Shown here piece after piece: positions 20,276 through 40,143 of a DNA stretch of 64,000 nt (its first letter is position 1; each line of letters starts with the position of its first letter). The notes below the pieces were generated by a model. The model made no database searches and was not told the DNA's origin. It was given only the letters and a program-made list of their open reading frames with translations. The stretch comes from an uncultured Amnibacterium sp. GTDB taxonomy: Bacteria; Actinomycetota; Actinomycetes; Actinomycetales; Microbacteriaceae. The position numbers and the translations under genes are program-made. Location of the stretch: NCBI RefSeq assembly GCF_964244015.1, contig NZ_CAXTHO010000001.1:4364-68363 (forward strand). The letters run 5' to 3'.

Positions 20276-20492
20276 TTCGAAGTTGAATCGGATTGCTTTG
20301 GTCTCGGGCTTGAAGCTGATAACATTCCCCCAATGTCATGCGGATCTAGCGGCACTCCGCAGATACAGACCATCCTTCAGCTCCGCGTGCGACGGAAGTC
20401 TGGACGGCCTCCCAGATGCGTCTTGCACTGGTGATCGCGTCACCCCTAGTGTCGTACGCGATGTCGCTGCTCAACGCAAGGGGACCGGTTCA

Positions 20493-20936
20493 GTGATCAA
20501 CGGAGAGACGCGCGAGGCAACCCTTGCACAAGGCAAGCCTGTCACCGTGGACGGTCGGACTCGGTCGAATTTTGCAGATCGGCCACTCGGCGCAGCAGTC
20601 ACCGTTATTTTGGTTACGTTCGCATCTTTCGTGCTACCTGTCGTGGCCTGGGTGATTGGCGTGGTCTGTCTGGTTCGTTCGACTCGGTGGACCAGGGTGG
20701 ACAAGGTTGTGGGAATACTGGGTTGGCCGCTGGCCTGGGTAGGGATCCTTGCTCTCCGAGGTTTCTCTGGCGCGCAATTGTCCCCGCGAACAGCTCGTTG
20801 TACGGATCTGGGGTTCTGCGTTCCTAATCCGCCTGTGCCCGCTCCGGGGTCGGTGTTTACGATTATACTCTTCCTCGCGGCGATTCAGTGCGTCGTCTTC
20901 GCCTATCTCACGATTCGCTACAAGCGGGGTCGGTAG
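20493..20936 (+). CDS. Hypothetical membrane protein (about 3-4 TM)
   Basis: VLPVVAWVIGVVCLVRSTRWTRVDKVVG; start inferred at GTG 20493. Confidence 0.55.
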   Translation: MINGETREATLAQGKPVTVDGRTRSNFADRPLGAAVTVILVTFASFVLPVVAWVIGVVCLVRSTRWTRVDKVVGILGWPLAWVGILALRGFSGAQLSPRTARCTDLGFCVPNPPVPAPGSVFTIILFLAAIQCVVFAYLTIRYKRGR

Positions 20937-20964: not shown

Positions 20965-22152
20965 TTATTTTATTGCGGGTGGCTGCGCTCGCTGCTCCGT
21001 GTAACTGCGTCCATGTTTAAGCGAAGACCACACCGGTGACGCGGTCGCATTTGCAAATGATCCTGATCCTGATCCTGATCCGGAGCCACCGGCGGGGAGC
21101 TTCGGCTTCGGCTTCGGCTTCGGCACGAGGGCCTTGACGTTCGGTGTGCCCGGGGTCTTCACCCAGTCGTTGGATGCGCAGTAGGTCGCGATGTCGGTGG
21201 TGAGCGCTGACTTCTCGGCCGTGTTGACCGCGAGCTTCCAGCGGTACTTCACCGCGATCCAGTTGCGGACGTAGGTGCAGCGATACGAGGTGAGGGTCGG
21301 GAGGTAGGCGTTCGGCTCTCGATCGCCCTTGGACCGGTTGGCGTGCGTTGTCACGGCGGTGAGGGACGCGCCGTACCCAAGGTCGTTCGCATTCGCCTCG
21401 CGCTCCTTGGCGCTCCAGCCGTAGGCGCCGGACGTCCATGCTTCCTCGACCGGCACGAGGTGGTCGATGTCGAGCTTGCTCGCCACGGTGGTCGCCGTGC
21501 CGTCGTAGGGCGAGGTCCATGTGCCCTTCTTCACGGTGTGCCGGGTGTTCTCCGTGACCTTCGTCTTCGACTCGCTCTTCAGCACCTCCGCGCGGGTGTT
21601 CTCGTGGTCCCCGTTGGCGTCGATCCAGAGCTCGAACTTCGTCCGCTTGTAGCTCGAGCTGTGCGACTCGGCCTTGACCTTCAGCTTGCCGAGAAGCGCG
21701 AGGGCAGACGACTTGCCCGTCGGGGGAGTGAGGACCTGCGTCACGGTCTTCGTGAAGTCGGTGCTCGTCATACAGGGGAGTGCGGTGAAGGTGCTGTCGA
21801 GCGCGCAGGACGTCACCGCGATCGAGACCGCCGCTGGGCCAGCGCTCTTGGCGCGCGGCACCCGGACGACGTAGTCGCTATCGGAGTCGTACGCGCCCGC
21901 GTTGACCGTGTCGACGACAACGCCGTCGACGAGCGTCTCGAACTTCCCGCTCGCGGGGTACGTGTCCTCATCGGCGCTGCCGATGGCGTCCCAGTCGTAC
22001 TGAGCCGTCAGGGTGTTGTCCCGCCAGGACGCGGACGCGTTCTCGATCTCCGAGGTTGCGCCGGAGTCGGCGTGTGCGGCGAGTCCAGGCGCGAGCACCA
22101 GGAGCCCGGCGAGGGCGGCGGTCGTCAGGACAGCGAGGGGACGCTTCATCAC
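20965..22152 (-). CDS. Secreted HNH-type nuclease (DUF1524-like) with signal peptide
   Basis: Signal ending AAHA; WTSPYDG, LDIDHLVP..EAW.SGA, ANDL, NRSKGD; PK and GS repeat tail. Confidence 0.8.
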   Translation of the reverse strand: MMKRPLAVLTTAALAGLLVLAPGLAAHADSGATSEIENASASWRDNTLTAQYDWDAIGSADEDTYPASGKFETLVDGVVVDTVNAGAYDSDSDYVVRVPRAKSAGPAAVSIAVTSCALDSTFTALPCMTSTDFTKTVTQVLTPPTGKSSALALLGKLKVKAESHSSSYKRTKFELWIDANGDHENTRAEVLKSESKTKVTENTRHTVKKGTWTSPYDGTATTVASKLDIDHLVPVEEAWTSGAYGWSAKEREANANDLGYGASLTAVTTHANRSKGDREPNAYLPTLTSYRCTYVRNWIAVKYRWKLAVNTAEKSALTTDIATYCASNDWVKTPGTPNVKALVPKPKPKPKLPAGGSGSGSGSGSFANATASPVWSSLKHGRSYTEQRAQPPAIK

Positions 22153-23589: not shown

Positions 23590-26500
23590 TTAGGTGTTTG
23601 CCGACTCAAGGCGCGCGGTTGCCGCGATGATCAGGTCATCAAGGTCCGTCTCGGCTCCTGTGGTGTGGGCCATGACCCGTACCGCCCACTCGAGATGCTC
23701 GACCGGGTCCTCGACGTCGCGCAGCTCGGCGCATCTACGCGCCACGCGGAACCCGATCTCGATGTCAATTGCGGTCAACAGCGGTGCACGGCCTCGTGCT
23801 GCCATGAGGGCGAGCACCCGTGCAGCAATGGCGGGCGCGGCGTGAAAACGTCTGGCTGCGCCCATCATCGCCATCTCCTGGAAGGTGTCTACAGACCCGC
23901 CTAATTGGATGACGCGCTCCATGATCGAGAACCAGTCCCCTAGAGCGTGATTGCCGGCCCACCATGCGGGACGAGCGAGCGCTGAAGAGACCAACGAAGG
24001 TTCCCCGCGATTCAGCACGATGTCTTCGATCATCACGTCGATGGTCACTGGCTGCTCGGCCACGCCGCTCCGAGCGAGCTTGACCACAGCGTCTTCCTGC
24101 TCTCGAGCGATCCGAGCCACTTCGTCCGCGGTCACGTCTGGCGACTTGAGCGGTTGAAGCCGAGCAGCTTCCTGCAGATTCACCGTGCCGAAGGTTGCGA
24201 CGCCGAATGCGGAGGCGAGCCTACGCTGAGCGGCGTCATCACTCCAGAGGGGGAGTCCGAGCTGGTGTGCGAGGTCAATTGGGTCCAACCAGGGCGCTGC
24301 GTCATCGTTGAGATCCAGATTGACGATCCGGTCCGCGACATCAACCGGAGCTACCTCGACTGATTCCGCGATCCGAAGCATCCGGTTCGCCCGCTCGAGT
24401 ACGGCGATCTGCTGAGCCGGATCGGAGGGTCGCAGAATTGGGCGTTCGCCCATTGCATCCCAACTGAGACGCCCAACTGAAGCGGTATCGGCTCGAGCAG
24501 CGACTGCCGACACAGCAAGGTCCCGCTTCGCAGAAACCGGCTGGGCAACGCGGGCGAATTCGTTGAGCGCATCGGTCGCCGCATCGAGATCGGGAAGGAG
24601 GTCGAGCACGGAGGAGTCGATTACGACGCCGCCGCCACGAGCAGTGGCCGCCGCCTCCACCTCGCTCGCGTGTACTTCCCCATCGGCGGCGGAGCCGAAT
24701 CGAACACCCAGGATCCGTCGTGCCAGCGTCAACCCGTACGGCTCGCGCAGCGTGGTGGCAAGCATGCCCAACGGCAGAACACCGCCGGCTACTTGGTCTC
24801 CGAGTCGACGAACGGCGTCCGCATGATCGCTCGTGCTCGCGGTGCGTAGGCGCTCTGCAAGAGGGCTGGCCTGAAGGTCAACTGTCGTCAGCAGTTCGAT
24901 GCCACTGCCAGACCTGCTCGCAGCCCTTGCCAAGATCGCGAACGCGTCCGCGTGCACCTGCCCCGGGACTTGGACGCGAAGGTCGGGCGTATCTACTTCG
25001 TCGTCATCGTCCTCCGTGTCGATGCTGACTTCGTCTGTAGCCGGGTCCTCGCCCCGGGTCTGGCCAATGAGGGTCTGCGCAATGTGCTGCGCGAGCTCGG
25101 GTTCCTCGCCCTCGAGTCGCTTCGCGAGCTCGATTGCCGAAATGGCGGTCTCGGCACTCCAGCCAGTGAGCACGTGGACGTTAACCCAGACCGTGGCCTC
25201 GCCCACCGAGACAGGGACCTTCGGGAAACGGTCGATCACTGTGCGCGCACGTGGCCAGTCCTCGAGCTTGCCGGCGCAGACGAGCGCGTTCCACAGCGCG
25301 GAGTCGGGCCACGACTCCTCCGGGTACTCGAGCACGGCTTCGAACTGGCGCAGGGCTCCTCGGTAGTCATTGCCAGCTGCGAGCACCTCGCCAAGCTGCA
25401 CTCTGTACTGCAGGAGTTGCAGGCCGCTCAGCAGACCGGAGGCAAGTCCCTCCTCAAGCAGACGTCGAACGTTCGACATGTCAGCGGCGGCGAATGCGAA
25501 CCGCACTTCTAGGTCGAGGAAGCTGACGTCGTGTAGCCGCTCGAACGAGCGCCGTGCCAGTGCCGCGGCGCCAGCACGGTCGCCGTTTTCAGCCATTGCG
25601 TCGATGAGGATGTGAGCTGCAAGCGGGTCTCGCGCTGAAAGACGGCGGAGCTCCTGGTCGATCACAGCTGGTTCCCGCGCATGTCGAGCCACCACACCGA
25701 TCAGCGCTTTGTAGTCGGCCGGGACTGACGCGTTCCGAAGTCGGTCGAACTCGGCGGACGCGTCATCACCGAGGAGCGCGAGTTCGAAGACGCGTTGCAC
25801 GAATAAGCCCGCGAATGCCGCCGCGTCTGGCCGCTCGATGGCGCGGCGCAGCACCGCGCGGCGCTCTTCGTCTCCCGCCGCTTCGGACGCGAACTCATCG
25901 AGCGCGTCCTGTCTTGCTGCTGCAGGCTGAATTCGGCCAAGGATGGCGCGGACTGCCTGCTCACTTCGGTCAAGTCGTTTCGCGGTGAAAGCTGCGAGGT
26001 GCGCGATGAACGGGTCTGCGACCTCAGCGGCGGTCGCCTCTCCTTCCGGGGCAGGAAGGCATGCTCTGAGCGCTTCGTCGAGCCGCGTCTGCATACCCAG
26101 CACCCGAACCAGGATCTCGAGCGGGTCGCGGGTTGAGCCACCCCACTTGCGTCGTTGATGAATTGCCTCGCGCGCGTAGTGCTCGGCGGCGCTGAGGTCG
26201 GTTACGGAGCCGGCTGGTGTTCGACTTCGGTTGGCGAGGGCGACCGCGAGTTCAATCATGTGCCCGGACGACGCGGGTTCGATCTCGAGCGCAGACTGCA
26301 GCGGCGGAATGGCAGCCGCCCAATCATGCTTACGAAGCGCTCGGGTAGCGCGCAGTGCGTGGACGAGGACATCTGCCTTGTCCGACCCGAGCTGATCGAG
26401 TACCGGATCGTCCTCGTCCGATCCGCTGCCTCCGCCCGTCCAGCCCACGACGGTCGCCGCGATTGCGACCGCAGCTTCTTTGGAATCACGCGCTCGAGCA

Positions 26501-27303
26501 TCCGCGAGCAGTTTGGCCGCGCGATCTCGGTCCGGGTCCGCCATCGCTGCAACCGCGAGGTGTCGAGCTGCACGAGACTCATCAACGTTTGCCGCGATCT
26601 CCAGCGCGCGAGCCTGGGCGGCGTGAAGTCCGTGTTCAGCACAGAAGTTCGCGACGGCAAGTGGCCCGTGCCGTCCCGCAGCCGCGAGCCACTCTGAGCT
26701 GGCCAACACTTGGTCGACCGCCGCCGACGGGTTAGGTCCTGTTAACCGTTGGGCCAGATGCCCCGCGCGGATTGAGTCAAGCTCCTGGAGCGCTTCGAGA
26801 TGGGTTGCGCAGGAGGGCGGAAGACGATCGAGTGCCGCGTTGAACAGCACCGCGTGTTCGCGCACGCGGCGCTCCAGCATCGCGCCCCAGTCGGGAAGTG
26901 CCTGGTCAACCGGCTGGGCTCTCGGTACGAGTACCCGCCACCGCTTCGTGGTGCGGTCAACAGTCCGAAGTGAGATCTCCTGCCAGTACGCCTTCTCAGT
27001 CTCGATGTCGACGAGCACGACGATCACTGGCAGCGCGTGCTGCAACCAGTAGGAGGCGTGCGGCTCGTCGAACGAGAACCACCAGCCGCCTGGACCGCGC
27101 GGGCGGAAGAAGCTCGGACCACCTTTGACCTGGACGGCGATCAGCTCTCCTGTGGGACGACTGCCCTCAGTGCGCTCGACGTGGACATCGATGCCCCAGT
27201 CGTGCACGAATTGTTCGCGAGGCAGCCACCCGAGGCGTGCGACCATCACTGAGAAGAGGGATACCCCGAGTTGACCGGTCTGACCTGTTGGCGCCACCGG
27301 CAC
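23590..27303 (-). CDS. DUF4365 (restriction-endonuclease-like) - TPR - PIN domain protein
   Basis: N-terminal DWGIDVHVE...IAVQVKGG; long helical repeats; C-terminal VVIDSSVL...LAHQLGLPLWSDD. Confidence 0.75.
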   Translation of the reverse strand: MPVAPTGQTGQLGVSLFSVMVARLGWLPREQFVHDWGIDVHVERTEGSRPTGELIAVQVKGGPSFFRPRGPGGWWFSFDEPHASYWLQHALPVIVVLVDIETEKAYWQEISLRTVDRTTKRWRVLVPRAQPVDQALPDWGAMLERRVREHAVLFNAALDRLPPSCATHLEALQELDSIRAGHLAQRLTGPNPSAAVDQVLASSEWLAAAGRHGPLAVANFCAEHGLHAAQARALEIAANVDESRAARHLAVAAMADPDRDRAAKLLADARARDSKEAAVAIAATVVGWTGGGSGSDEDDPVLDQLGSDKADVLVHALRATRALRKHDWAAAIPPLQSALEIEPASSGHMIELAVALANRSRTPAGSVTDLSAAEHYAREAIHQRRKWGGSTRDPLEILVRVLGMQTRLDEALRACLPAPEGEATAAEVADPFIAHLAAFTAKRLDRSEQAVRAILGRIQPAAARQDALDEFASEAAGDEERRAVLRRAIERPDAAAFAGLFVQRVFELALLGDDASAEFDRLRNASVPADYKALIGVVARHAREPAVIDQELRRLSARDPLAAHILIDAMAENGDRAGAAALARRSFERLHDVSFLDLEVRFAFAAADMSNVRRLLEEGLASGLLSGLQLLQYRVQLGEVLAAGNDYRGALRQFEAVLEYPEESWPDSALWNALVCAGKLEDWPRARTVIDRFPKVPVSVGEATVWVNVHVLTGWSAETAISAIELAKRLEGEEPELAQHIAQTLIGQTRGEDPATDEVSIDTEDDDDEVDTPDLRVQVPGQVHADAFAILARAASRSGSGIELLTTVDLQASPLAERLRTASTSDHADAVRRLGDQVAGGVLPLGMLATTLREPYGLTLARRILGVRFGSAADGEVHASEVEAAATARGGGVVIDSSVLDLLPDLDAATDALNEFARVAQPVSAKRDLAVSAVAARADTASVGRLSWDAMGERPILRPSDPAQQIAVLERANRMLRIAESVEVAPVDVADRIVNLDLNDDAAPWLDPIDLAHQLGLPLWSDDAAQRRLASAFGVATFGTVNLQEAARLQPLKSPDVTADEVARIAREQEDAVVKLARSGVAEQPVTIDVMIEDIVLNRGEPSLVSSALARPAWWAGNHALGDWFSIMERVIQLGGSVDTFQEMAMMGAARRFHAAPAIAARVLALMAARGRAPLLTAIDIEIGFRVARRCAELRDVEDPVEHLEWAVRVMAHTTGAETDLDDLIIAATARLESANT

Positions 27304-27677: not shown

Positions 27678-28013
27678 GTGATGCTCGGCCTTTTCACGGC
27701 GGGCGGAGCATTGGCCGTCATTCCGGCTGTTGCACGACTCGGGCTAGACCTCGTCTGGATAGGGGTCGTGCTAGCAATTGTTACAGCCGTGTCGGTTCTG
27801 GCGGATTTAGGGCGCCGATTTCTTGGAGCCAGACAAAATCGCGCAGATCGGCTTGAACTCCTTCTGATGCGGGTGAATAGAGACTATCTGGTCCGGCGCG
27901 GCGCCGAAGTGGATTTGGATCGCGTCGCAGAATTAGGTAACGCCGTAATCGGTACGGCGCATGCTACGGAGGCCGAGTTGCTCGCGCGTATCCACCGCGA
28001 TCTTCAATTGTGA
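27678..28013 (+). CDS. 2-TM hypothetical protein, possibly the 3' part of an interrupted gene
   Basis: Two hydrophobic helices then a charged helical tail; in-frame TGA at 27630 upstream. Confidence 0.4.
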   Translation: MMLGLFTAGGALAVIPAVARLGLDLVWIGVVLAIVTAVSVLADLGRRFLGARQNRADRLELLLMRVNRDYLVRRGAEVDLDRVAELGNAVIGTAHATEAELLARIHRDLQL

Positions 28014-28057
28014 CCTGTCTCAATCCAAACGCGCCTTGAGCGCAACCGGACGCTACG

Positions 28058-28588
28058 TCACACGTCGTCCTGCCGTGACGGGGGCGGCGCCAAGTTGGGA
28101 GCGAGCGGCCATCCGTGTATCGCGCCTTTCGTGACGACAATCTTGTAGGTCGTCCCCGACTGCGACACGCCGATTATCGCGTTACCGCTCTGCGTTCTAT
28201 TTGGGTCGTTGTAGGCGCTCACAAGCTCGGCCTGCGCCTCAATGCGACTTAGAGCCGGGTTCGTGAAAGTGTGAGTGCCGCGTTTGGAGTAATCCTTGCC
28301 GTCCTTCGTGATGTGGAGTTCGGCGCGGACCGTCCCCGTCCTGACGTCGACGGCCACCTCTCTCGCGTCGTACTTGTGCGCCTCAGGGTTTCGCACGTGC
28401 ATGATCAATTTATCGAGCGGGACGTGGTGAAGACCGACAAGCTTGCCCCCCTTCTCATCCAGCCTGCCCTCGAATTGAATAGGGTCGACCGTCGGGGGAG
28501 CGTCTTGAACCGGCTTAGTCGGGGCGCGTGTAGGGCCCACGGGCGCTTGCGGCGACGTGAGCTGCGCTGGAGGCTTAATACAGGCCAT
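28058..28588 (-). CDS. Putative EndoU-like ribonuclease (stand-alone toxin domain)
   Basis: FEGRLD...LVGLHH, K..GTHTFT.P..SR.E....LVSAY, IIGVSQSG..Y, terminal HGWP follow the order of bacterial EndoU motifs; GAGGT RBS. Confidence 0.6.
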   Translation of the reverse strand: MACIKPPAQLTSPQAPVGPTRAPTKPVQDAPPTVDPIQFEGRLDEKGGKLVGLHHVPLDKLIMHVRNPEAHKYDAREVAVDVRTGTVRAELHITKDGKDYSKRGTHTFTNPALSRIEAQAELVSAYNDPNRTQSGNAIIGVSQSGTTYKIVVTKGAIHGWPLAPNLAPPPSRQDDV

Positions 28589-28655
28589 GGGGGGACCTCG
28601 TCTGCGGCATGGAAACTCATATACTACCGCTTCCGAAGTGCAAAGCGGAGGTGTC

Positions 28656-30098
28656 ATGAAGGAACACTGGCTGCTGCTTGCTGCTTCCGCGCCACCCGAA
28701 TTGTGGGAGATCTGGGACCGCGCCGATGTACTGCCCGACCGCCTCTATCGTCCGTCGGAAGACGACGGTCCAACGACGCTCGCGGCGGCAGCGTCGGCGC
28801 TCGCGCAGTCGGCCATGGAGGCACCAGACGGCCTCATCCCGCTGACCTATGTAGATGATCGCTCGCTCGCGTGCCTCGCGGTCACGGACGACGTCGACTT
28901 CGGCTGGAAGGCTGGTTGGGTCCTGCGCTGGCACCTCGACGAGATACCTGCACTCCGTCAGGGCCGCCCCCTCGATCGCAGTCTCGGTGAGTTCATGCAG
29001 TCCCTCTCCGAAGAAACGGGACCGGGCTGGCAGGTCGGACTCGACGGGATGAGGGAGGTCTCTGCGAGGTACCAGTCGGAGTTTGTCGTGCCCGGCATCA
29101 CGCCGAAGTCGTACGACCTGCGGCCGTTCCAGCTTGCGTCGCAGAACGTCGTCATCGGCCTCGCGGCAGTCCGGTACGACGCTCGCTTCGACGGCTCTTC
29201 GGTCGTGCACTGGCTCACAAGCGATGTGCCGCACGTCGCAACATTCGAGGGGGTCCGGGCGCTTGCGGCGCTCATCCTCTGCGATGCATTCCAGTCGGGT
29301 GGCACCATGGAGATCGACTTTTCGGAGCATCCTGAGCGGGGCGTGCCCGCGTCCCTGCGGCGCTACGGGCGCACCGTTGGCATCGAGCTTGGAGCAGAGA
29401 TGCCCGGCGGAGTCAGCATCTCGCCATCTGAGTCGCGCCAGCTCTTCTGGAAGGTCACGCCGATGCCGGACTCGCTGCGGTACCGCGCGCAGTTCCTGAT
29501 CGACGGTGGACTGCTAACGGTTGAGCGCCTCTGCTACTCCGTGCTCGCCCCGGTATGGACACCGGAGGCGCTGGACTTCCTCGTGGCGGTCGCGGCGCCG
29601 AATCGTCTCGGGTCCATCCTGAGCGGTGAGACCGATCCTCGGCGGAGGGGTTCGGGATTCGAGTACGCCCTAATGCGGGCGGCACTCGTGTTCGAGACCT
29701 TCCTAAGGCGCCTGGATGCCCGGGACGGTGCCGCTGGTGACGACGGTGAAAGCGAGCGAGTGTTCGAGGACACCCGACACGGTGTCAGCTGGACCGTCCT
29801 CGACGAGTCAGGTGCGGTACTCATCGAGGGGTATCCCGCGGGAGCGCTCCCGTGGAGTTCGGGTTCGGAGAGTGACGGCCGGATCGTGGTCCTACCTCGT
29901 GCTCACGTCGCGCCACCCGACGTCGACCTCCTCGCGGAACTCGAGCGAGTCCACGATGCGCCGGCTCGCGTCATCGTCCCGCAGGATGCGGTGGTCGGGC
30001 CCCACCCCGAGGCAGTACTACGCGCGCCCGCCCGACAGTCCGAATTCGACGCCCGCATCGAGCGCAACATCGTCGCGGCGAGGCTCGGCCGCGCGTGA
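28656..30098 (+). CDS. SUKH/SMI1-KNR4-like N-terminal domain plus unknown C-terminal domain
   Basis: GLIPLTYVDDRSLACL...VLRWHLDE...LDRSLGEFM pattern; GGAGGT RBS; GTGA coupling to the next gene. Confidence 0.6.
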   Translation: MKEHWLLLAASAPPELWEIWDRADVLPDRLYRPSEDDGPTTLAAAASALAQSAMEAPDGLIPLTYVDDRSLACLAVTDDVDFGWKAGWVLRWHLDEIPALRQGRPLDRSLGEFMQSLSEETGPGWQVGLDGMREVSARYQSEFVVPGITPKSYDLRPFQLASQNVVIGLAAVRYDARFDGSSVVHWLTSDVPHVATFEGVRALAALILCDAFQSGGTMEIDFSEHPERGVPASLRRYGRTVGIELGAEMPGGVSISPSESRQLFWKVTPMPDSLRYRAQFLIDGGLLTVERLCYSVLAPVWTPEALDFLVAVAAPNRLGSILSGETDPRRRGSGFEYALMRAALVFETFLRRLDARDGAAGDDGESERVFEDTRHGVSWTVLDESGAVLIEGYPAGALPWSSGSESDGRIVVLPRAHVAPPDVDLLAELERVHDAPARVIVPQDAVVGPHPEAVLRAPARQSEFDARIERNIVAARLGRA

Positions 30099-31042
30099 GC
30101 CGGGAGATGGCGGTCGGTTTCGTCCGGCTGGAACCTGACGATTGGGAGCGCGCGCGAAACCTTCTCACACACCGAGAGGGCGCCGAACGTGCCATGGAGA
30201 ATGCGCAGGTCGGCGACCGGACCGCCCTCGTGAAATACCGTCAGATCACGGGCGAGCTGGAACGCATCGCCTACGCCGCCTGGTCTGCGGGCGCGCCGAT
30301 CGACGGCACGCCCTCCGAGTTCTCGATCCAGCTCGAGTGGCCGTTCGCGCAGGGCCGGACCCCTGCGCCAGCCTTCGACGGCGCAGCCAGCCCGCCGCGA
30401 GAGGCGTGGCGCGCGGCCGACCCGCGAGCAAGCCGCACCGCGGCGACCTATGAACGCTTCCTCACACAGCTGGAGCGGTGGAGCTGCCACGTAGAGGGAC
30501 CGGAGCCTCCACCGCTTCGCCCGAGCGGCATTCAAAACCGCGCCCTCACGGAGGCATTCCGGCAGTTCGCGGCAGGCGAGCCGGGCCGACGGCCACAAAC
30601 AGTTCCGGTGACGTACATCGACGGATCGAGCGCGCGCCGATTCCCCCTCCACTCGGTTGAGCTTTTCTCGACGGTGCCCGACGAGGGCCGTGTGCTCCGG
30701 TTCACCCTGCTGTCCGTGCGGCACTTCTCGATGGACGCGACGATCGACGGTGCCTGGCTGCGTAACCGCGAGATCAGCCTGCCGAGGCCGCGAGCGGACA
30801 CCGACGAAATCGTCTACGTCGCAACCCGCGATCAGCTAGAGCGACTCGGGGACGAGCCGCTGATCCTCCACTTATTCCAGACCGGGCTGGAGGCGGCGGT
30901 CACCGGCTTCTACCGCGCGCTGGTCGATCATTTAATGGACAACAGGGTATCGGTGTGCGTTGTCCCGCACTACTTCGCCGGCGTTGTGCGCGGCAAGGAC
31001 CGGTTCCACGAGGGGACACCGTGGGCGAACTTCAAGTCGTGA
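30095..31042 (+). CDS. Hypothetical protein, 315 aa, in helicase operon
   Basis: GTGA overlaps at both ends; C-terminal alpha/beta region LLSVRH...LHLFQTGLEAAVTGFYRA. Confidence 0.7.
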   Translation: MSREMAVGFVRLEPDDWERARNLLTHREGAERAMENAQVGDRTALVKYRQITGELERIAYAAWSAGAPIDGTPSEFSIQLEWPFAQGRTPAPAFDGAASPPREAWRAADPRASRTAATYERFLTQLERWSCHVEGPEPPPLRPSGIQNRALTEAFRQFAAGEPGRRPQTVPVTYIDGSSARRFPLHSVELFSTVPDEGRVLRFTLLSVRHFSMDATIDGAWLRNREISLPRPRADTDEIVYVATRDQLERLGDEPLILHLFQTGLEAAVTGFYRALVDHLMDNRVSVCVVPHYFAGVVRGKDRFHEGTPWANFKS

Positions 31043-34000
31043 GTGAGTCGGAGCTCTCCACCTGGAGTGCCCTTTGCAAGGACTGTCGAAATATACGGAT
31101 CGCGCAGGGCAAGCTGCCTAAGCGAGCCGGAGACGCCCAGCGGCAGGAGCAGTTCGAATACTCCGAGGAGCACGCCAGGCGACTCCGCGAACGCGGCCAG
31201 TCCCGGTCCGATCGTTGCCCGGAGTGTCGACGTCGGCACCGCAGGGAGATAAGGGCGTTTCCAGTCGCCTACATAGATGTGGCCGCGATCGGGGAGGCTG
31301 CGGACTCAGCCGATCCAAGCGTGGGGCCGACAGGTCCGTTGGGGGGACTCGGCCCTCTGCCGCGCGTGCATCGGAAACGTACCGAGCGTGTCAACCTCGC
31401 ACAATTCGAGCTCGGGCTCACCGACGCGGACGTCCTCCGCCTGATCGAGCTCATGGCTGAGAACCAAGTCGTCGTGCTCGAGGCTGGAACAGGGACGGGG
31501 AAATCGACGCTTGCGCCCTTTCGTCTCATGAACCCGCCCGATGGCGCGGCGTACCGCCCCCTCGACACCGGACCGATCGTTGTCACTGAGCCGCGCGTGC
31601 GAGCCACGAAGGACATCGCGGCTTTCGTGGGCGAGACGATGTGCTTCGGCCACGATCCCAAGCAGTGCCGTCAGCACATCGGTCCAGGGCATCCGGTTGG
31701 GTACCAGTGCGAGGGACAGAAGGTGTGGGACGACGCCTGCAACCTGATCTATGCCACGGACGGCACGGTGATCAACTGGCTCGTTAACGGCGACCTCGCG
31801 CGATTTTCAGTGGTTGTTGTCGACGAGGCGCACGAACGTAGCGGCAACATTGACGGCATCCTCACAATCCTGGCGGCGCAGCTGCCGCGGTACCCGCACC
31901 TCCGGGTCATCATCGCGTCCGCGACGATCGAGCGCGGGTACTTCATGTCGTTCTTCTCGAAGGTCCCGACGGTGCGCGTGGCCGCGTTCAGCGCGGAGGC
32001 GCCGAAGACCGTCGGCTACGGCGTGCCGCTCTTCGCAGACGTCGAGTTCGACGAGACCGTGCTCGCCGGGGGTATGCATGTTACGGACGACTCGAGCGGA
32101 TTCGTCCTTCCCGGGTGGCCGGACGCGCCGAACCTCGAGGAAGGCGGTCGCAGCCTCCGTGAACGGACGCGCGACGCGATCGCCAGCCTGCGGCGCACCG
32201 CACCCGAGTGGCCTAAGCGCATCGAGCCGGTGGCGGTGGACCTAGCCCTCGACTTGCTGCGAACGACGAACGAGGGCGGGATCCTTATCTTTCTTCCAAC
32301 GTTCAACTCCGTGCAGGCGGCGCGTGCCGACCTGATCGCACGCCTCGAGAACGAGAAGTTCGGCGAGAACGTTGACGTCTACTGGTTGATGCGCGCGACC
32401 CCGCCCGTCGAGCAGGAACTCGCGGTGGGTTCCGTGCCCCCAGGTCGTCGCAAAGTAGTCATCGCTAGCAATATCGCCGAGACGTCGCTCACCATTTCAG
32501 ATCTTCGCTACGTAATCGACGGCGGACTCGTTCAACAGTCGAGGTGGGATCCCGATCACGTCACCTCCTACGGGGCATGCGTGCCGCACAGCCAGTCCGG
32601 CGTCAGGCAGCGCTGGGGCCGCGTGGGGCGCAAGACGCATGGTTGGGTGTTTCCGCTCTACACCCTCGCTCAGTTCCGGGCGATGCCGAGAGACACCCCG
32701 GCTGGGTCGACGCAGGTGAACCTCGAGAGCATGATGCTCAAGCTCTTCGCTGCCGGTGAGGACCCACGGAACCTCGACTTCCCAGTGGATTTCGCGTCCG
32801 AGGACATCTCGCGCGACGCGCAGGGTCAGGAGGTCGCGGCGGGATTCACGCGTGAGCGTGCACGCGCGCTCGCGGCATTGCAGGCGGCGGGAGCCCTCAC
32901 CGCCGGGGGTGAGAGCCTGAGCGCGCGTGGCGCGGAGCTGGCGAGGTCCCGGCTCCCCGCCGACCAAGCGACGGCGCTCATGTTCGCCGACCGGTTGGCA
33001 TGCGTGCCCGAGGTAGCGACAGCGCTCGTCGTCCTGACTTCTCCTTTAGCGGGCCCTGGCGGGATCCTCGCGACTGAGAAGTCGTGGCCGGACGAATGGG
33101 CGGTGCACGCCCGCCGCTGCCACGAGGCGTTCGCCGAGGGGTGTGACGACGACCTAGAGCTCATGGTGCGGATTTTCGCGGAATGGAGGGCACAGTCCGA
33201 TCCCGAGCGCTGGGCACGTCAGTGGTGGATCGATCTTCCGGCGCTAGAGAGGGCTCGACAGAAGGCGCTGAAGCTCATCGAGTCGCTCGCGCCTGGGATG
33301 GCTCACGAGGCGGACCGCGCCCTCGATCTGAGACTGCTCGAACGCGCGCGCGCGGCAGTGTCCCGCGCGCTCCCAGGTCTGCGTTACTCACGTCGCTCGC
33401 TCGAGGACGGCAAGGTCGTCTGGGAACCCACGACCGGAGCCATCGCGCCGCTGGCCGTGTCACCGCTTCACCTCGTGCAGCCCACGGGCGACGTGATCGC
33501 GCTCGGGCGACTTCGGCCGACGACGCGCGGTTGGGTCTCCGCCGTGGGTCAGGCGTTCGGGATCGTCGCCGTGCGCGCGTGGGCAGCGGAGGGCGAACTC
33601 GACGAGCTCGACCTCATCCTCCGCGCTCGCGTCGAGGCCGTCGAGACTCCGATCGACCCGTTCCGGACGGCGCGCGAACGATTCCCGGTGGGAGCGCTCC
33701 TCGACTTCGATAACTGGTCCCTGGGGCCGCGCTTGACTGTGACGAAACTCTCCGATGGCCTTCAGCTACCTGGTCGCAGGGAGGTCGCCGAGCAGGAGCC
33801 TGGCGCGCCCGGTGACCCGCTGGTCTACTCGACCTCGACCTCGACCTCGACCTCGACCTCGACCTCGACCTCGACCTCGACCTCAGTCGGAACGACGACT
33901 CCGGCCGGGTCGGCGGATTTTGAGGGAGCGTCCGATTCCGGGGACGGGACGGATGGCGCAGACGAGGTCGAGTGGGACCTCGCCGGCGATGTCGTGCTGG

Positions 34001-36177
34001 GGGTCGCAGAGATCCCGGAAGAAGAGTTGCACCTCACTCCGGTGCCGATCCGCGAGCTTGAGAACCCGGAGATTGAGGCCTTCGACAACGTCGAACTGGA
34101 ATCCCGGCCGCAAGACGATCCGATGGTCGAGCTCTCGTTCATACTCGAAGGGGGTCGAATCGCTGACGGTATCGCGGCTCGCGCCCTTGTGACCGGATAC
34201 CAGTCCACCGCAGACGGGGTCGCCGTCCGCGTGATAGCGCGCCCGGCGATGGTGGACGACCTCGAACCGGGCGCCAGGGTCCGAGTCGCCGTGACTTCCG
34301 AGGTGCGGACGCACCTCGGACGCGGAGTCGTCCTGCGACGCATCGACGGCGCAGGAGGAATCGTTGGCGACGAAGTCATCTCGTTCGAACCTATGGCCGA
34401 CGCGGCCCTCCGCGCGGACGCCGACAGCCTGCCAATCGGGGCGGAGCTCGATCTTGTCGCAGTGCCGGTACAGGGGCAGGGGCAGGCCGTCGTGCCGACC
34501 CTGGCGGGCTTTGTCGCCGAGCAGATGACGGGTCAGCGCGGTGTCCCGGCGACCCTCACTAGTCGGGTGTTCCGCAACTACCAGGGCACGGAGTCGGTGC
34601 TCGCCCACCTCGACCTTCCGTCCAGCCCCGTGCGCCCCGGCATCCTCGTGCCGCGCACGCTGATTGACGAGGCAGGGATCGCGATGGAAGAGGGCGCGCG
34701 TGTGCAGCTCTCCGTCGGATTTAACCTCGGGGCGCGGAGGACGGGCGCATGGCGCGAGGGGAAGATCGAGCGGCTCGTGACCCGCTATCCGCACCTGTTC
34801 TCGTCGCAAGGTGGACGCAGGCTGCGGTTCGAGCCTCGCGTCGCGCTCACGGGTGCCGAGCGTGACGATCTTTTGGCCTCCGTCCGTGGCGACCCGGATA
34901 GCGAAGCGAACATCTGGCGCCTCTGGTCGACCACCCGCTGGCTGCGACCGCTGGGCGTCCAGGGGATCGTCGACGCCGAGCTGCCGGCTTCTGCACGGCG
35001 TAGCATCACTGACGAGAAGTTGTCGCGTTTCCGCAAGCAGTTTGGTGTGGGGATCGTGCGGCGGCCCGGGGGCAGGCTTCAGATGGCGGGCTCCGGCGAG
35101 GCCGTCGAGCGAGCGATGGCGGCGATCAACGACGAGTTGTCCTTCACGCGGCGAGGTTTCGAACTCCCCGCTCCCGGTGGCCGGTGGCCCGCTGCTCAGG
35201 AGGTCGTCGCCGCCCTCGTTGCTGCCGATGCGTCGCTCCAGCCGGGCCAGGTCGCATCCTGGGTTCGGGGCCGCAACGTGTGGGTGCCGGGTTGGTATGC
35301 CGACGCTTCTGTCATCGAGTCTGCCCTGAGGGCCCAGAACGACGGGCTTTACGACGTGCTGACCTTCGCGGAACCGCGGGGCTTCTACGCGTTCAAGAAG
35401 AAGGAGCGCTGGGAGCAGGTCAGCGCCGGCCTCGCGGTGACCCGCCAGGTTCTCGCGGATGGATCGACCTGGCTGATCCGTGCAGACGACGGTTCGGTGC
35501 TGAACGAGGTGGTCGCCCGGTTCCGGCGTGCGGCGTCTTCCGTGCAATTCTCCGTCGGTCGCGGTGAGCGCGTCGAGGTCACCGCGATCGAGCAGACGAC
35601 CTCGCACGAGCTCCAGGTCGGATACGCCACCCCGCACGGGTCAAACCGCACCGCGACACCGTTTTTCGTAGTCGTCGACGGCGGGCGGCGATTATTGGTA
35701 GAGGAGGCGGCGCGCGGCGACTTCGTCGCACGCGACCCCCTGGACGGCTCGACGTGGCGGTGCCTCGGCAGCGACGGCAACGTTCTCGAATTCGGGGCCT
35801 TTCACTTAACGCGCCCGGTCGGCGGCGAGCCGTCGGCAGTCACCGTCACCTGGTCGGGCGAGCCGCGGAGGGCCGTCGCCGTCCCTCTCGGCGCCGGGCA
35901 GGTTACGCGGATAGTGAAGGTGGTCTCCTCAGGGAGTTCCTTCGTGCTTACCTTCGACGCCGGGGCTGCGAGAGAGTGCGCAGCCCTCGATGCTGCTCGT
36001 GACAATCGAGAGAGCTGGTCCGCTGACATCGACCTTCAGAACGATCGCCTCCGCGTCGCCGCGGGCGCCCATCGCGCAGAGCTCAGACCGGTCGCTGAGC
36101 GGGAACACGAGTACCGGGGAACCGAGCGGCACATCGACGCGCACGGCGGCGGAGACATCTGGATGTGGCTTCCCTAG
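31039..36177 (+). CDS. Large DEAH/RHA (HrpA-like) SF2 helicase with N-terminal zinc ribbon and long C-terminal extension
   Basis: CKDC...FEYSE...RCPECR; motifs GTGTGKST, TEPR, DEAHERS, SAT, ASNIAETSLTI, QRWGRVGR; HA2-like helix region. Confidence 0.85.
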   Translation: MSESELSTWSALCKDCRNIRIAQGKLPKRAGDAQRQEQFEYSEEHARRLRERGQSRSDRCPECRRRHRREIRAFPVAYIDVAAIGEAADSADPSVGPTGPLGGLGPLPRVHRKRTERVNLAQFELGLTDADVLRLIELMAENQVVVLEAGTGTGKSTLAPFRLMNPPDGAAYRPLDTGPIVVTEPRVRATKDIAAFVGETMCFGHDPKQCRQHIGPGHPVGYQCEGQKVWDDACNLIYATDGTVINWLVNGDLARFSVVVVDEAHERSGNIDGILTILAAQLPRYPHLRVIIASATIERGYFMSFFSKVPTVRVAAFSAEAPKTVGYGVPLFADVEFDETVLAGGMHVTDDSSGFVLPGWPDAPNLEEGGRSLRERTRDAIASLRRTAPEWPKRIEPVAVDLALDLLRTTNEGGILIFLPTFNSVQAARADLIARLENEKFGENVDVYWLMRATPPVEQELAVGSVPPGRRKVVIASNIAETSLTISDLRYVIDGGLVQQSRWDPDHVTSYGACVPHSQSGVRQRWGRVGRKTHGWVFPLYTLAQFRAMPRDTPAGSTQVNLESMMLKLFAAGEDPRNLDFPVDFASEDISRDAQGQEVAAGFTRERARALAALQAAGALTAGGESLSARGAELARSRLPADQATALMFADRLACVPEVATALVVLTSPLAGPGGILATEKSWPDEWAVHARRCHEAFAEGCDDDLELMVRIFAEWRAQSDPERWARQWWIDLPALERARQKALKLIESLAPGMAHEADRALDLRLLERARAAVSRALPGLRYSRRSLEDGKVVWEPTTGAIAPLAVSPLHLVQPTGDVIALGRLRPTTRGWVSAVGQAFGIVAVRAWAAEGELDELDLILRARVEAVETPIDPFRTARERFPVGALLDFDNWSLGPRLTVTKLSDGLQLPGRREVAEQEPGAPGDPLVYSTSTSTSTSTSTSTSTSTSVGTTTPAGSADFEGASDSGDGTDGADEVEWDLAGDVVLGVAEIPEEELHLTPVPIRELENPEIEAFDNVELESRPQDDPMVELSFILEGGRIADGIAARALVTGYQSTADGVAVRVIARPAMVDDLEPGARVRVAVTSEVRTHLGRGVVLRRIDGAGGIVGDEVISFEPMADAALRADADSLPIGAELDLVAVPVQGQGQAVVPTLAGFVAEQMTGQRGVPATLTSRVFRNYQGTESVLAHLDLPSSPVRPGILVPRTLIDEAGIAMEEGARVQLSVGFNLGARRTGAWREGKIERLVTRYPHLFSSQGGRRLRFEPRVALTGAERDDLLASVRGDPDSEANIWRLWSTTRWLRPLGVQGIVDAELPASARRSITDEKLSRFRKQFGVGIVRRPGGRLQMAGSGEAVERAMAAINDELSFTRRGFELPAPGGRWPAAQEVVAALVAADASLQPGQVASWVRGRNVWVPGWYADASVIESALRAQNDGLYDVLTFAEPRGFYAFKKKERWEQVSAGLAVTRQVLADGSTWLIRADDGSVLNEVVARFRRAASSVQFSVGRGERVEVTAIEQTTSHELQVGYATPHGSNRTATPFFVVVDGGRRLLVEEAARGDFVARDPLDGSTWRCLGSDGNVLEFGAFHLTRPVGGEPSAVTVTWSGEPRRAVAVPLGAGQVTRIVKVVSSGSSFVLTFDAGAARECAALDAARDNRESWSADIDLQNDRLRVAAGAHRAELRPVAEREHEYRGTERHIDAHGGGDIWMWLP
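33829..33882 (+). repeat. In-frame tandem repeat (TCGACC)x9 encoding (Ser-Thr)9
   Basis: Counted directly in the sequence. Confidence 0.95.
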
Positions 36178-36292: not shown

Positions 36293-37415
36293 TGAACCGT
36301 CCCTGTTTTCAGGCCGCTTCGTTGCTGGGGGCTTCGTCGTTTGACGGGCCGGTTTCTTGGGCGTAATAGTCAGCCTCGTATTCGGCGGGCGGGATGTTCC
36401 CCAGGGTCGAATGCAGGCGGGACGTGTTGTACCAATCGACCACGCGAAGGTGACCGCCTCGACGTCCGGCAGGCCCTTCAGTGGCCCGGGTCGGAACGGT
36501 GAGCCCTTGCGGATCGCGTCGGTATTGAACAGCCCCATGACGGTCTCCGCGGCCGCTTTGTCCTACGCGTCACCGACGGACCCGATCGATGCCACCAGGC
36601 CCGCCAGCGCGACGGTCTCGGTGAAGCGGATCGATGTGTACTGGGCGAAATCAACCGGTCGTCGCAACACCGGGCTCTTGTGGCGAGGCTAGATGGTCGG
36701 CGAGGGCTTCGGCGGGTGTCTTCCATCCGAGCGTCCTGCGTGGTCGGTTGTTTAGGGTCGCGGCGATCGCAGCGAGGTCACCGGCTGACCATCTGGAGAG
36801 GCCGGTGCCCTTCGGGAAGTGCTGCCGCAGGAGCCCGTTCGTGTTCTCGTTCGTGCGGCGCTGCCAGGGCGAGTGCGGGTCTGCGAAGAACACCTTCGTG
36901 CCCGTCGCGAGGGTGAACGCGGCGTGCCCGGGGAGTTCCTCGCCCCGGTCCCAGGTCAGAGTCTTGCGCAGTTGCAGCGGCAGCTGGCCGAGCGAGGCGA
37001 TCAGCGCCCTTGTCATTGCTTCGACCCCGTAACCAGCCAACGGCGGCCCGCCCTTCACTGGCGCAGTCTCGAGCCAGCCGTCGAGCCGAGGTAGGTGGAC
37101 GAGCGATCGTGGATCGCGTGTTCCGGTACGAGGGTCCCAATCGCGGACCGTTCGGTGCCGACGATCAGGTCGCCTTCCCAATGGCCGGGCAGGGCTCCGT
37201 CGTCGGCCTCAGCGGGACGCTCGCTGATAACGACCGCGGCGGTGACGTGACCTTGTGGCTGGTTCCGGGATCGGGTGCGTGGGATCCGCAGCGCTCGACC
37301 CGTCGAGCCGATCGAGCACCATCCTGACCGCGCGCTCCCGAACCTCGCTCGGGTACTGCTTCGGCATGCTGCATCCTTCCAAGGAAAACAGCGGCCTGAA
37401 AACAGGGACCGTTCA
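36293..37415 (-). mobile_element. Degenerate IS3-family element with both terminal IRs and an internal IS30-family fragment
   Basis: IRs TGAACCGTCCCTGTTTTCAGGCCGC and GCGGCCTGAAAACAGGGACCGTTCA (1 mismatch); orfA start MPKQYPSEVRERAVRMV at 37367; orfB end at about 36310-36650. Confidence 0.85.
36651..37250 (-). pseudogene. IS30-family transposase C-terminal fragment
   Basis: PGHWEGDLI, TLTWDRG.E, FADPHSPWQR.TNENTNGLLRQHFPKGT; frameshifted. Confidence 0.85.
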
Positions 37416-38201: not shown

Positions 38202-38588
38202 ATGAACACAGAACTCAAAACACTGGCCCTGCTGCAAATGCGCGGAGAGATATTGAATCTTCCGCCACCCTCTTCTCGTCGCCGTCTCGCTGAACGCGCA
38301 ATCGCGATCATGGGCATAGAGCTTGATGATGTTCGAGCTGCCGAAACGGCTCGCATCCTTGAATCACAAGAGCAAGCAAGTCTCGATATATCAAGTGCGC
38401 TCGACGCGAAAGAGGTTGTCTCTTTTGATGAGCTCGACGAGATACGGAAATTGCATGCTTTGACAAAAGGGCAACTTAATCGCGTAGTCGGCATTCTCAT
38501 CGAGGATGGCACGGCTGCGTACGTTGGAAGCGGATACGCCAAGGCACCGGACGAAGAGCAGCTCCAGCGTGAACTCATCAGCCAGTGA
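38202..38588 (+). CDS. Hypothetical protein, possible winged-helix C-terminus
   Basis: 128 aa; LTKGQLNRVVGILIEDG...YVGSGY; overlaps the dGTPase start. Confidence 0.5.
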   Translation: MNTELKTLALLQMRGEILNLPPPSSRRRLAERAIAIMGIELDDVRAAETARILESQEQASLDISSALDAKEVVSFDELDEIRKLHALTKGQLNRVVGILIEDGTAAYVGSGYAKAPDEEQLQRELISQ

Positions 38589-40143
38589 TGATCAGGACGC
38601 CCTGAAGACACGGTTCTATGCGGAGGATGCGGAGCTCGTCTGGAGATCCGAGGCGGAGCGTGACGCCGATCGTCTGCTTTACTCAACCGCGTTCCGTCGA
38701 CTTGACGGAGTGACGCAGGTTGCATCCGCAGGCGAAGTTGCTCTGCTGCACAACAGGCTCACGCACTCCTTAAAAGTCGGACAGGTTGGTCGGAAAATTG
38801 CGGCCTCCATAAATTTCCAGGCAAACAAGAGTGAGCCCGTACGGCAAGCAATCCGAAAATTTACTGGAGTTCCTTTCAACGCAGACCGTCGAGAGGCGAT
38901 TGACCCGTGGGTTCTTGAAGCCGCAGGGATGGCGCACGACCTGGGGCATCCCCCCTTCGGTCACATAGCTGAGCAGGTTCTCCAAAAAGCGCTCGGCAAA
39001 ACTCCTAACCAAAACGAACTGCTTCCGGTACCTGAAGGGTTTTCGCTAGACGACTCTTTCGAAGGAAATGCGCAGAGTCTTCGAATAGTGACTCGTCTGG
39101 CATTTGGCCGCCTTTCAGGAGTTCTGCAGTCAGGTGCCGGCCTAAATCTGACCCGAGCAACGACATCAGCTGTGCTCAAATACCCGTGGCGCCGAAACGC
39201 GCGTCCCTCCGAGGTTGACCTCAGGAAGGAAAAGTGGGGTGCGTACGACTCTGAAGCGGACGTCTTGGAGTGGGCAACTGACGCCATCGACGATTCAGTA
39301 CGACGCGAGAGGCCGGACGGTTCGCTTGAGTGGCGGTCGGTGACGGCGCAAGCGATGGATTGGGCAGATGACATCACGTATGCCGTGCATGATGTCGAAG
39401 ACTTCTGCAGGGCAAGGCTGATTCCAGCCGATTTGCTCAGCCTCTCTGAATTCGATGCTCCATTGATTCAAGGGTTTTGGCAGTATTGTCTCGCCCGCCT
39501 GTTAGACAATTCCCTTATCTTGTCGAAAATTGATGGCGGTCAGGACTCGATTGAGCCGGCTTTGCGAGCTATCTTCTTAGGTGTACTTCGTGGACTTCCT
39601 GGGTCTACTCAGGCGACGAGGCTTGAACGTGAAGAATTTCGCAAGTGGTCTTCGGAGCGTATCGAGTTCTACACGTCCCCGCGACCCCAGGGCATCCAGG
39701 TTCTACCCGACACAGGATTTCTAGATATTGCATTGCGGCCTCTCGTCGAGGTCGAGATCCTGAAGAAGCTGACGTGGTACTTCGTTATAGAGCGGCCCGC
39801 GCTCGGATCGACGCAACGTGGTCAAGCGAAAATGATTCGTGAGCTTTTCGTATGGTTGTGCGAGTGGTCTGAGAGGGAGTATCCCGGCCCCCAGTACAAG
39901 ACCTCGGGCGTGTCGCGTACTCAATATAATGTTGGCGGGCTTCCGCCTCGACTGATTGACTACCTAGATGTCACGAGTTGGCAACAGCCCGACACCGGCG
40001 GGTACAGATCTGAACGAGAGAGAGTTGCTCGTGCTGTCTGCGACTACATCTCAAGTCTTACTGAGAAGCAAGCTCTGGACCTGCACATTCGTTTGAATGG
40101 CGCTTCGAGTGTGGCGATACTCGACAACTGGGTTCAATTCTGA
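38569..40143 (+). CDS. dgt: dGTP triphosphohydrolase (HD family dGTPase)
   Basis: RDADRLLYSTAFRRL...TQV, HNRLTHSLKV, AHDLGHPPFGH, FEGNAQ, DWADDITYAVHDVED, V.DYISSLTE; start uncertain (38506 or 38569). Confidence 0.92.
   Translation: MNSSASDDQDALKTRFYAEDAELVWRSEAERDADRLLYSTAFRRLDGVTQVASAGEVALLHNRLTHSLKVGQVGRKIAASINFQANKSEPVRQAIRKFTGVPFNADRREAIDPWVLEAAGMAHDLGHPPFGHIAEQVLQKALGKTPNQNELLPVPEGFSLDDSFEGNAQSLRIVTRLAFGRLSGVLQSGAGLNLTRATTSAVLKYPWRRNARPSEVDLRKEKWGAYDSEADVLEWATDAIDDSVRRERPDGSLEWRSVTAQAMDWADDITYAVHDVEDFCRARLIPADLLSLSEFDAPLIQGFWQYCLARLLDNSLILSKIDGGQDSIEPALRAIFLGVLRGLPGSTQATRLEREEFRKWSSERIEFYTSPRPQGIQVLPDTGFLDIALRPLVEVEILKKLTWYFVIERPALGSTQRGQAKMIRELFVWLCEWSEREYPGPQYKTSGVSRTQYNVGGLPPRLIDYLDVTSWQQPDTGGYRSERERVARAVCDYISSLTEKQALDLHIRLNGASSVAILDNWVQF

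Follow-up and report, generated by a model that had tools for sequence, protein, structure and literature searches.

A conserved helicase triad with tagged, exchangeable partners: a candidate mobile defence module in an uncultured Amnibacterium sp.

We analysed a 64,000-nucleotide stretch of the genome of an uncultured Amnibacterium sp. (assembly GCF_964244015.1, contig NZ_CAXTHO010000001.1, positions 4,364 to 68,363; hereafter the window), in which four genes at 28058-36177 had been proposed to form an RNA-centred conflict system (the original prediction). Reading of the sequence bore out what had been said of their layout: four intact open reading frames (ORFs) of the lengths given, one divergent from the other three across a gap of 67 bp, and the three co-directional genes, here called g1, g2 and helicase, chained by GTGA overlaps at 30095-30098 (g1/g2) and 31039-31042 (g2/helicase). 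Shine–Dalgarno (SD)-like motifs precede both outward-facing genes, GGAGG 5-6 nt upstream of the g1 ATG and GAGG 7 nt upstream of the ATG of the divergent gene, which we call the effector gene. Its product opens with a short cysteine-containing peptide (the tag; MACIKPPAQLTSPQAP), followed by a Pro-rich linker and an EndoU-like domain (aa 40-163). The features of the locus are the following.

28058..28588, minus strand: tagged effector gene, EndoU-like (Pfam PF14436), 176 aa, ATG at 28588
28538..28588, minus strand: cysteine-tag codons, the first ~17 effector residues, conserved across tagged proteins
28030..28044, minus strand: terminator-like hairpin directly past the effector stop (consensus scan only)
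28589..28655, no strand: divergent intergenic gap between effector and g1, 67 bp, read from the sequence
28656..30098, plus strand: g1, 480 aa, with a SUKH-like N-domain (~aa 40-120), a central alpha/beta and helical region and a C-terminal alpha/beta domain
30095..31042, plus strand: g2, 315 aa, a helical hairpin and a predicted SAVED/CARF-like fold (AF2 model and Foldseek)
31039..36177, plus strand: giant DEAH/RHA helicase, 1712 aa (Pfam DEAD and Helicase_C; PDB matches)

The locus was compared with three loci with called genes, 52 genome loci fetched with a g2 profile and five more. The order g1-g2-helicase recurred in ~55 loci, mostly with overlapping stop and start codons, as judged in all loci whose contig was long enough. 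This arrangement is far from chance, and the three genes (the triad) are a conserved, translationally coupled unit. The co-occurrence implied for all four genes in the original prediction held for the triad but not for the EndoU-like domain, which tblastn found in none of the 56 related loci and which has a single homologue overall. The hosts of the triad belong to at least seven phyla (Actinomycetota, Alphaproteobacteria, Gemmatimonadota, Acidobacteriota, Chloroflexota, Patescibacteria and Planctomycetota), and one copy lies on a conjugative Paenarthrobacter plasmid (Paenarthrobacter ureafaciens pB, NZ_CP094491.1; locus L058). Every one of the 82 close homologues of g2 is annotated 'hypothetical', as are all members of the g1 family, which comprises at least 222 clusters. 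When a g2 profile was run against 1.84 billion representative proteins, the family came to 583 clusters at 50% identity. No match to g2 was obtained by tblastn against phage genomes. Genes of integrative and conjugative elements (ICEs) and insertion sequences (ISs) are common around the triad loci, and the annotated loci mostly adjoin known defence or toxin genes (Abi_2, HEPN, Wadjet, GmrSD, AbiE, RES and SIR2), as seen in a sample of 9-10 loci. The distribution is sporadic and horizontally transferred.

Some copies of the triad depart from the common form. The Patescibacteria-type loci (L045, L047, L048, L050-L052 and L055) are compact: g1 and g2 each measure ~385 aa, and the helicase 860-1200 aa. 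In Streptomyces sp. NPDC005820 (L053, 9944-14680; also P0114), g2 and the helicase are fused in frame into a protein of 1578 aa, in which the helicase part begins at ~residue 413 and the zinc ribbon and RecA1 are lost; this looks like a deletion derivative and not a designed fusion. Two copies are decayed: in L061 (10981-15913) the helicase is broken into 611 and 1013 aa, and in L062 (8661-10004) g1 is interrupted, within an element that carries a type IV secretion system. A comparison of L001 and L057 at the same site was discarded, as the flanks are inverted relative to the operon and the comparison is not a clean one.

Clustering of the flanking ORFs showed that the gene adjoining g1 opens with a conserved M-A/G-C... 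peptide, regardless of its strand or its C-terminal domain; beyond the triad and these tagged genes, the same clustering gave no further conserved neighbour family across the loci. A tagged gene was found beside g1 in 45 of 49 non-redundant loci. Of 1699 candidate starts near g1, 49 were tag starts; in the remainder of these loci the count was 7 of 26,039 (odds ratio 110, p 3e-52). The enrichment is weakened as a formal test by the tag regular expression having been set after the data were seen. Among 51 tagged proteins the only invariant columns are Met1 and Cys3. The tag varies between groups: most actinobacterial loci have MACGNNHVSRxYLSSQP, a proteobacterial/gemmatimonad/acidobacterial clade has MACGKPP or MACAKPP, Streptomyces has MGCAKPG, Chloroflexota have MACSN or MGCSN, and the window, L001, L037 and L057 have MACIKPP; MSQCCGKIP is the form of the Patescibacteria-type loci, which have two or three tagged genes. 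Viral contigs scanned for the MACGNNH tag gave no match.

Conservation acts on the peptide, since synonymous sites vary freely: in the MACGNN group each of the four Gly codons occurs, Ser is encoded by both TCN and AGY, and Arg by both CGN and AGG. The possibility that the tag is an RNA or DNA element was ruled out by these free third positions and by the use of both Ser and both Arg codon families. A metagenome scan with back-translated MACIKPP returned 81 matches, nearly all of them chance (short out-of-frame ORFs), so the scan was uninformative on specificity; it did give one new triad-bearing locus, L073.

In the flanks covered, the Patescibacteria-type loci have up to two MSQCCGKIP-tagged small genes each, and L047 shows a third position, downstream of its helicase. 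The genes of one MSQCCGKIP class lie between g2 and helicase but are read from the other strand, and hydrophobic segments occur in some members. On the Paenarthrobacter plasmid, a tagged gene (L058, 6705-7154, plus strand; MACGNNHVSRAFLASPP...) overlaps the start of g1, and RefSeq annotates an opposite-strand ORF of 73 aa in its place. Tagged partners are probably under-annotated in general. The public call for the window effector (P0087) starts at an internal Met (MHVRNPE...), 62 codons late (28334-28402, minus strand), and is 114 aa long; the tag and the GLHH motif are thereby lost. The conserved tag and the SD motif favour the 176-aa form.

The proteins that carry the tag differ widely. When the tag was removed, the 51 tagged partners fell into at least 14 unrelated C-terminal clusters. 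The largest has 16 members of ~135-175 aa with an invariant HxHVIH motif and belongs to no known family. The second has 12 members of 300-380 aa, five of which match Endonuclea_NS_2, and the third has nine members with weak NOV_C-like matches. EndoU partners number two (the window and L021), and there are several further singletons. The HxHVIH partner (L019, L020, L022 and 14 others) is the commonest in actinobacteria; its domain of ~70 aa, which has no Pfam or PDB relative, combines an invariant H-x-H-V-[IV]-H strand with a GNxVxAAExxLA helix at the C-terminal end. On a tree of g1 and g2, five changes of tag class and 11 changes of effector cluster were counted. Effectors have been swapped between sister loci in three cases (the window, with EndoU, versus L001; L024 versus L038; L023 versus L030), and a further swap is seen in L014, within the otherwise uniform clade of L019, L020 and L022.

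The window effector is EndoU-like, as had been proposed, PF14436 (EndoU_bacteria) being matched just above its cut-off (26.7 versus 25.3 bits, E 8e-6, model positions 10-129 of 129). It is related by BLASTP (E 3e-5) to the EndoU effector of L021, which itself scores 47.9 bits (E 2e-12), and GLHH and K..HTF motifs are present; a PDB sequence search with the effector gave noise only. Its sole homologue among 5.8 billion proteins is P0088 (58% identity), which starts with MACIKPPAKVTKPQ, carries the same MACIKPP tag and is encoded divergently to a triad of 480 aa, 311 aa and 1721 aa. We had first suspected from the tblastn result that the EndoU gene was an unrelated neighbour; this was dropped given the shared tag and the tagged P0088 next to a triad of the same kind. 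In agreement with the original prediction, neither a hydrophobic signal nor a carrier domain is present in the effector. Downstream of it there is no minus-strand ORF of 80 aa or more, and the terminator-like hairpin after its stop suggests a monocistronic effector gene without a co-transcribed immunity gene. Nor was an immunity gene found among the called genes behind the divergent effectors of L001 and L002.

The g1 protein was modelled by AF2 with a mean predicted local distance difference test (pLDDT) score of 92 and a predicted TM-score (pTM) of 0.90. The window protein has no Pfam or NCBIfam match, the Pfam SUKH models (SMI1_KNR4, SUKH_5 and SUKH_6) gave nothing even at E up to 5, and a PDB search with the g1 profile gave noise only. 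Orthologues from Chloroflexi (L039, L040 and L043) match SUKH_5/6/SMI1_KNR4 (3e-15 to 1e-6) at the same N-terminal position, and hhalign joined the window-type N-domain (aa 40-150) to the Chloroflexi g1 with a probability of 97% (E 1e-10). An additional canonical SUKH copy, carried by P0228, aligns to window g1 aa 39-74 (E 0.001). By these sequence relationships the g1 N-domain is SUKH-like, as the original prediction had it.

The g2 protein, which had been listed as of no recognisable type, gave no Pfam or NCBIfam match in the window, and a PDB search with its profile returned noise only. Foldseek matched its AF2 model (pLDDT 91) to Cap5 (E 1.7e-4, prob 1.0), and Csm6, Cap4, SAVED-CHAT, Cam1 and a ring nuclease made up 44 of the top 48 matches. 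We therefore assign g2 a predicted SAVED/CARF-like fold, and the earlier label no longer stands. The family has the conserved motifs LLSxRHxEMD and QTGLExAVVGFYRA and many invariant polar residues, including Y174, R209, H210, D214, N224 and D237, which suggest ligand binding or catalysis.

The helicase begins with a CxxC...CxxC zinc ribbon (~aa 13-63), followed by a RecA1/RecA2/winged-helix (WH)/ratchet core (~aa 135-745) in which the motifs GKS, DEAH, SAT and QRxGRxGR are intact as read in the translation. PDB matches to Prp2, DHX16, DHX36, Prp43, HrpA and HrpB (E 1e-40 to 1e-22) reach query aa ~745. On this sequence evidence it is a true DEAH/RHA enzyme. The eukaryotic DEAH/RHA class includes the nucleic-acid sensors DHX9, DHX15 and DHX36. 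The protein had been described as an HrpA-type RNA helicase with extra domains; the class and the extra domains were borne out, but orthology was not, since the NCBIfam models gave partial matches of 131 bits for HrpA (cut-off 723) and 139 bits for HrpB (cut-off 546). By these scores it is not an orthologue of either. Of the tail of ~950 aa, the first ~680-830 aa are homologous across clades (hhalign, 100% to the L003 clade), and the last ~330 aa of the window helicase match nothing. The tails of relatives contain S1 (27 of 41), KH (10 of 41) and Jag_N (11 of 41) RNA-binding modules, which lie past the region homologous to the tail in the window. TOTE systems were considered and set aside as unrelated, there being one weak S1CSD-TOTE match only.

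The window has a GC content of ~70%, and an island of lower GC that spans ~10-52 kb includes the locus. Four features flank it.

20965-22152, minus strand: GmrSD_C gene (Pfam)
23590-27303, minus strand: DUF4365-TPR-PIN protein, 1237 aa (DUF4365, E 3e-29; PIN of TPR-GreAB-C-PIN conflict systems, E 6e-14)
36651-37181, minus strand: rve_3 integrase-core/transposase remnant, weak, between helicase and dGTPase
38506-40143: HD dGTPase (domain match)

The locus is surrounded by a defence island, whose character is confirmed by the DUF4365 and the conflict-system PIN domain in the 23590-27303 protein. The TPR-PIN gene and the dGTPase between which the locus had been placed are both present and are defence genes, but the dGTPase is not adjacent: it lies ~2.3 kb from the helicase, with the rve_3 remnant in between, which suggests separate arrivals of the dGTPase unit and the helicase module. 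An ORF of 111 aa (27678-28013, plus strand) with two hydrophobic segments converges on the effector gene and ends 45 bp from its stop; it is untagged and could be either unrelated or an accessory membrane protein. The window has one distant tag match, 7.7 kb from g1: an internal ATG in the 318-aa ORF 19980-20936 would give a product (20160-20936, plus strand) that starts with MACSKIRAST and resembles the Chloroflexi-type tag. This start is probably due to chance.

Taking these results together, we lean towards the view that the locus is one copy of a mobile four-part module, in which a constant core of g1, g2 and helicase would control tagged, swappable effectors. The core would consist of a SUKH-like adaptor (g1), a SAVED/CARF-like protein (g2) and a giant DEAH/RHA RNA helicase that carries a zinc ribbon and whose tail binds RNA. 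The effectors, one or more per locus, would be separately encoded, each with the ~17-residue Cys tag, then a flexible linker, and at the C-terminus a domain that can be exchanged. The EndoU gene is assigned to the module by the N-terminal cysteine tag of the family and would be one of many interchangeable tagged partners. The tag may act as a docking peptide by which any effector attaches to the core, with g1 as the most plausible site, and the docked effector would be kept inactive, with no need of a toxin-specific immunity gene. The helicase would load on or move along foreign or aberrant RNA. ATP-driven remodelling would then release or activate the effector, possibly gated by a nucleotide or RNA-end ligand on g2, and the effector would degrade RNA or DNA, so that the infection or the invading element is aborted. 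The binding of tag to core, the inhibition of the effector, the triggering by RNA and a role against phages are steps that we infer. A bolder version, a class of immune system not recognised before that is centred on an RNA helicase and in which the ~17-residue Cys peptide is a universal address tag, perhaps covalently engaged or modified via its Cys, by which one core holds, silences and fires many unrelated toxins, is put forward as a tentative and somewhat doubtful proposal.

Several observations weigh against the module reading, in addition to the small sample behind the defence context and the retrospective choice of the tag expression. Of the 51 tagged partners, 43 have no recognised toxin domain, and the HxHVIH domain of the largest cluster may be a metal-binding or regulatory module and not a toxin. 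The Pfam score of the window effector is borderline, and in the window and in P0088 a Gln (IQFEG) is found where L021 has the first His (DHILGGE), in a gappy alignment of three sequences. The likeness of g2 to SAVED/CARF proteins is one of fold, with TM-scores of ~0.2-0.34, and no SAVED/CARF Pfam model was matched by any of 41 g2 members at E up to 1. Among the genes called in 10 loci, none has a Pfam match for a nucleotide cyclase (CD-NTase, Cas10 or mCpol). Neither S1 nor KH was detected in the tail of the window helicase itself. Finally, the relative divergence of the g1 N-domain follows the dissimilarity of the effectors in co-directional loci (Spearman 0.44) but divergent loci, L024 and L038 among them, do not show this co-variation; as it is limited to co-directional loci, linkage hitch-hiking explains it equally well as a SUKH domain that serves as effector-specific immunity, and release of the RNase from its SUKH inhibitor, as put forward in the original prediction, stays hypothetical.

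The tag could also be read as a site of covalent modification or localisation, the core modifying Cys3 or the new N-terminus (e.g. by acylation or by attachment to something else) and thereby switching the activity or the location of the effector, for instance by membrane sequestration. We think this unlikely, although the M-(A/G)-C opening is reminiscent of N-terminal acylation motifs and no residue other than Met1 and Cys3 is invariant. The main tag classes have Ala, Gly or Ser at position 2, each of which permits Met removal, and many tags have a second Cys (MSQCCGK, MGCSNFC and MACSNYC). The top 50 Foldseek matches of g1 are all GNAT acyltransferases, with the likeness in its central region, a result that would suit a modifying core. 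These matches are weak, however (E 0.07-0.5, root-mean-square deviation ~13 Å), the usual Q/RxxGxG/A loop that binds coenzyme A is not evident in g1, and the g1 family is without an invariant Cys, His or Ser. Given the weak matches and the lack of such invariant residues, we regard g1 as an adaptor of unspecified type. No membrane component is conserved, and the tag is conserved well past the Cys (GNNxVSRxxLSSxP), which fits a binding peptide.

An addiction or stabilisation unit of toxin–antitoxin type, or a cassette for competition between elements, would account for the plasmid copy, the ICE- or IS-rich regions and the sporadic, horizontally transferred distribution. The core would in that case neutralise the tagged toxin, and loss of the element would kill the cell; the presence of a toxin beside a SUKH-like (immunity-type) protein is in keeping with this. 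Such an explanation strikes us as improbable, because a toxin–antitoxin pair would need far less machinery than a SAVED-like protein and a 1700-aa ATP-dependent RNA helicase equipped with S1/KH arrays. The neighbours are, moreover, mostly dedicated defence genes, and phage genomes and viral contigs gave no matches. There is least to be said for the EndoU-like gene having no relation to the triad beside it, or being a toxin that acts by itself or the remnant of a decayed gene, with the triad alone forming a unit, possibly for HrpA-like RNA surveillance. The absence of the EndoU domain from the 56 related loci, the untagged 114-aa public call from an internal Met, the borderline Pfam score and the apparent Gln in place of the first catalytic His had all pointed that way. 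This explanation is now largely refuted and very improbable: the long ORF has the tag of the family, an SD motif and a divergent position as in other loci, and its sole homologue has the same tag in the same position by the same triad. The triad itself, rare (583 clusters in 1.84 billion proteins) and scattered over phyla, is unlike a housekeeping unit, and the NCBIfam cut-offs for HrpA and HrpB are widely missed.

Parts of the candidate module have counterparts in known systems. Polymorphic toxin systems with SUKH immunity (Zhang, Aravind et al. 2012, PMC3482391) likewise combine a constant N-terminus with variable, recombining nuclease ends (EndoU and Endonuclea_NS_2) and encode a SUKH-type domain beside the toxin. 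They differ in that the module lacks a signal peptide and any domain for secretion or trafficking or of the carrier type; its constant part is only a Cys peptide of ~17 residues, no toxin-specific immunity gene lies downstream, and the toxin is tied to an intracellular core with a helicase and a SAVED-like protein. The predicted fold of g2, and nucleases of the abortive-infection type, recall the SAVED/CARF effectors (Cap4, Cap5, Csm6 and SAVED-CHAT) of the cyclic-oligonucleotide-based anti-phage signalling system (CBASS) and of type III CRISPR, but the module loci have no CD-NTase, Cas10 or other cyclase, g2 is not fused to an effector, and it has no Pfam SAVED/CARF match. Hachiman HamAB, Mokosh, Gabija and Druantia/ARMADA YprA-type systems also pair a large superfamily 2 helicase with a nuclease effector in defence islands. 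The module is not matched by PADLOC, its helicase is of the DEAH/RHA type (Prp2/DHX36/HrpA-like) with S1/KH tails in the family, and it adds two unique partners and has effectors that are separate, tagged and swappable.

A parallel in organisation is offered by the NTP-dependent conflict systems with effector-associated domains (EADs) and Death-like adaptors (Kaur et al. 2020, PMC7159879), where a constant NTPase core recruits diverse separate effectors via a shared N-terminal adaptor. EADs, however, are folded and homotypic on both partners, whereas the adaptor of the module is a short Cys peptide on the effector only; and the NTPase of the module is a DEAH helicase, in contrast to the STAND and other NTPases treated there, DEAH helicases not being mentioned in that paper. 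The helicase shares with HrpA/HrpB and with DHX36, DHX9 and Prp2/16/22/43 the RecA1-RecA2-WH-ratchet core with DEAH motifs, which predicts 3'-to-5' RNA translocation. It differs from HrpA/HrpB in its N-terminal zinc ribbon and its family-specific tail of ~950 aa, in scoring far under the equivalog cut-offs, and in being accessory, horizontally moving and always coupled to g1 and g2.

The module borrows known parts, yet has the defining features of none of the systems from which they come. PADLOC-DB v2 (2023) gave no match for effector, g1 or g2 and only noise for the helicase (E ~0.06, to Cas3 and DinG), in line with the original prediction, to which no described defence system of this combination was known. 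Our literature search, which did not reach subscription journals, found no published description of the module either. It is new relative to the published systems and apparently undescribed.

Knowledge of the tag improves annotation, since tagged genes are easily missed or mis-called. If the proposed role of the tag is true, it would be a portable handle for the conditional control of arbitrary proteins, which would be of interest to protein engineers. A tiny Cys peptide would then address separate, swappable effectors to a constant core, apparently without harm to the cell in the absence of cognate immunity genes, and the module offers a direct test of how cells restrain intracellular nucleases of many folds. 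If confirmed, it would represent a new family of prokaryotic immune systems, spread over at least seven phyla, also plasmid-borne, and built on a DEAH/RHA RNA helicase as the sensor.

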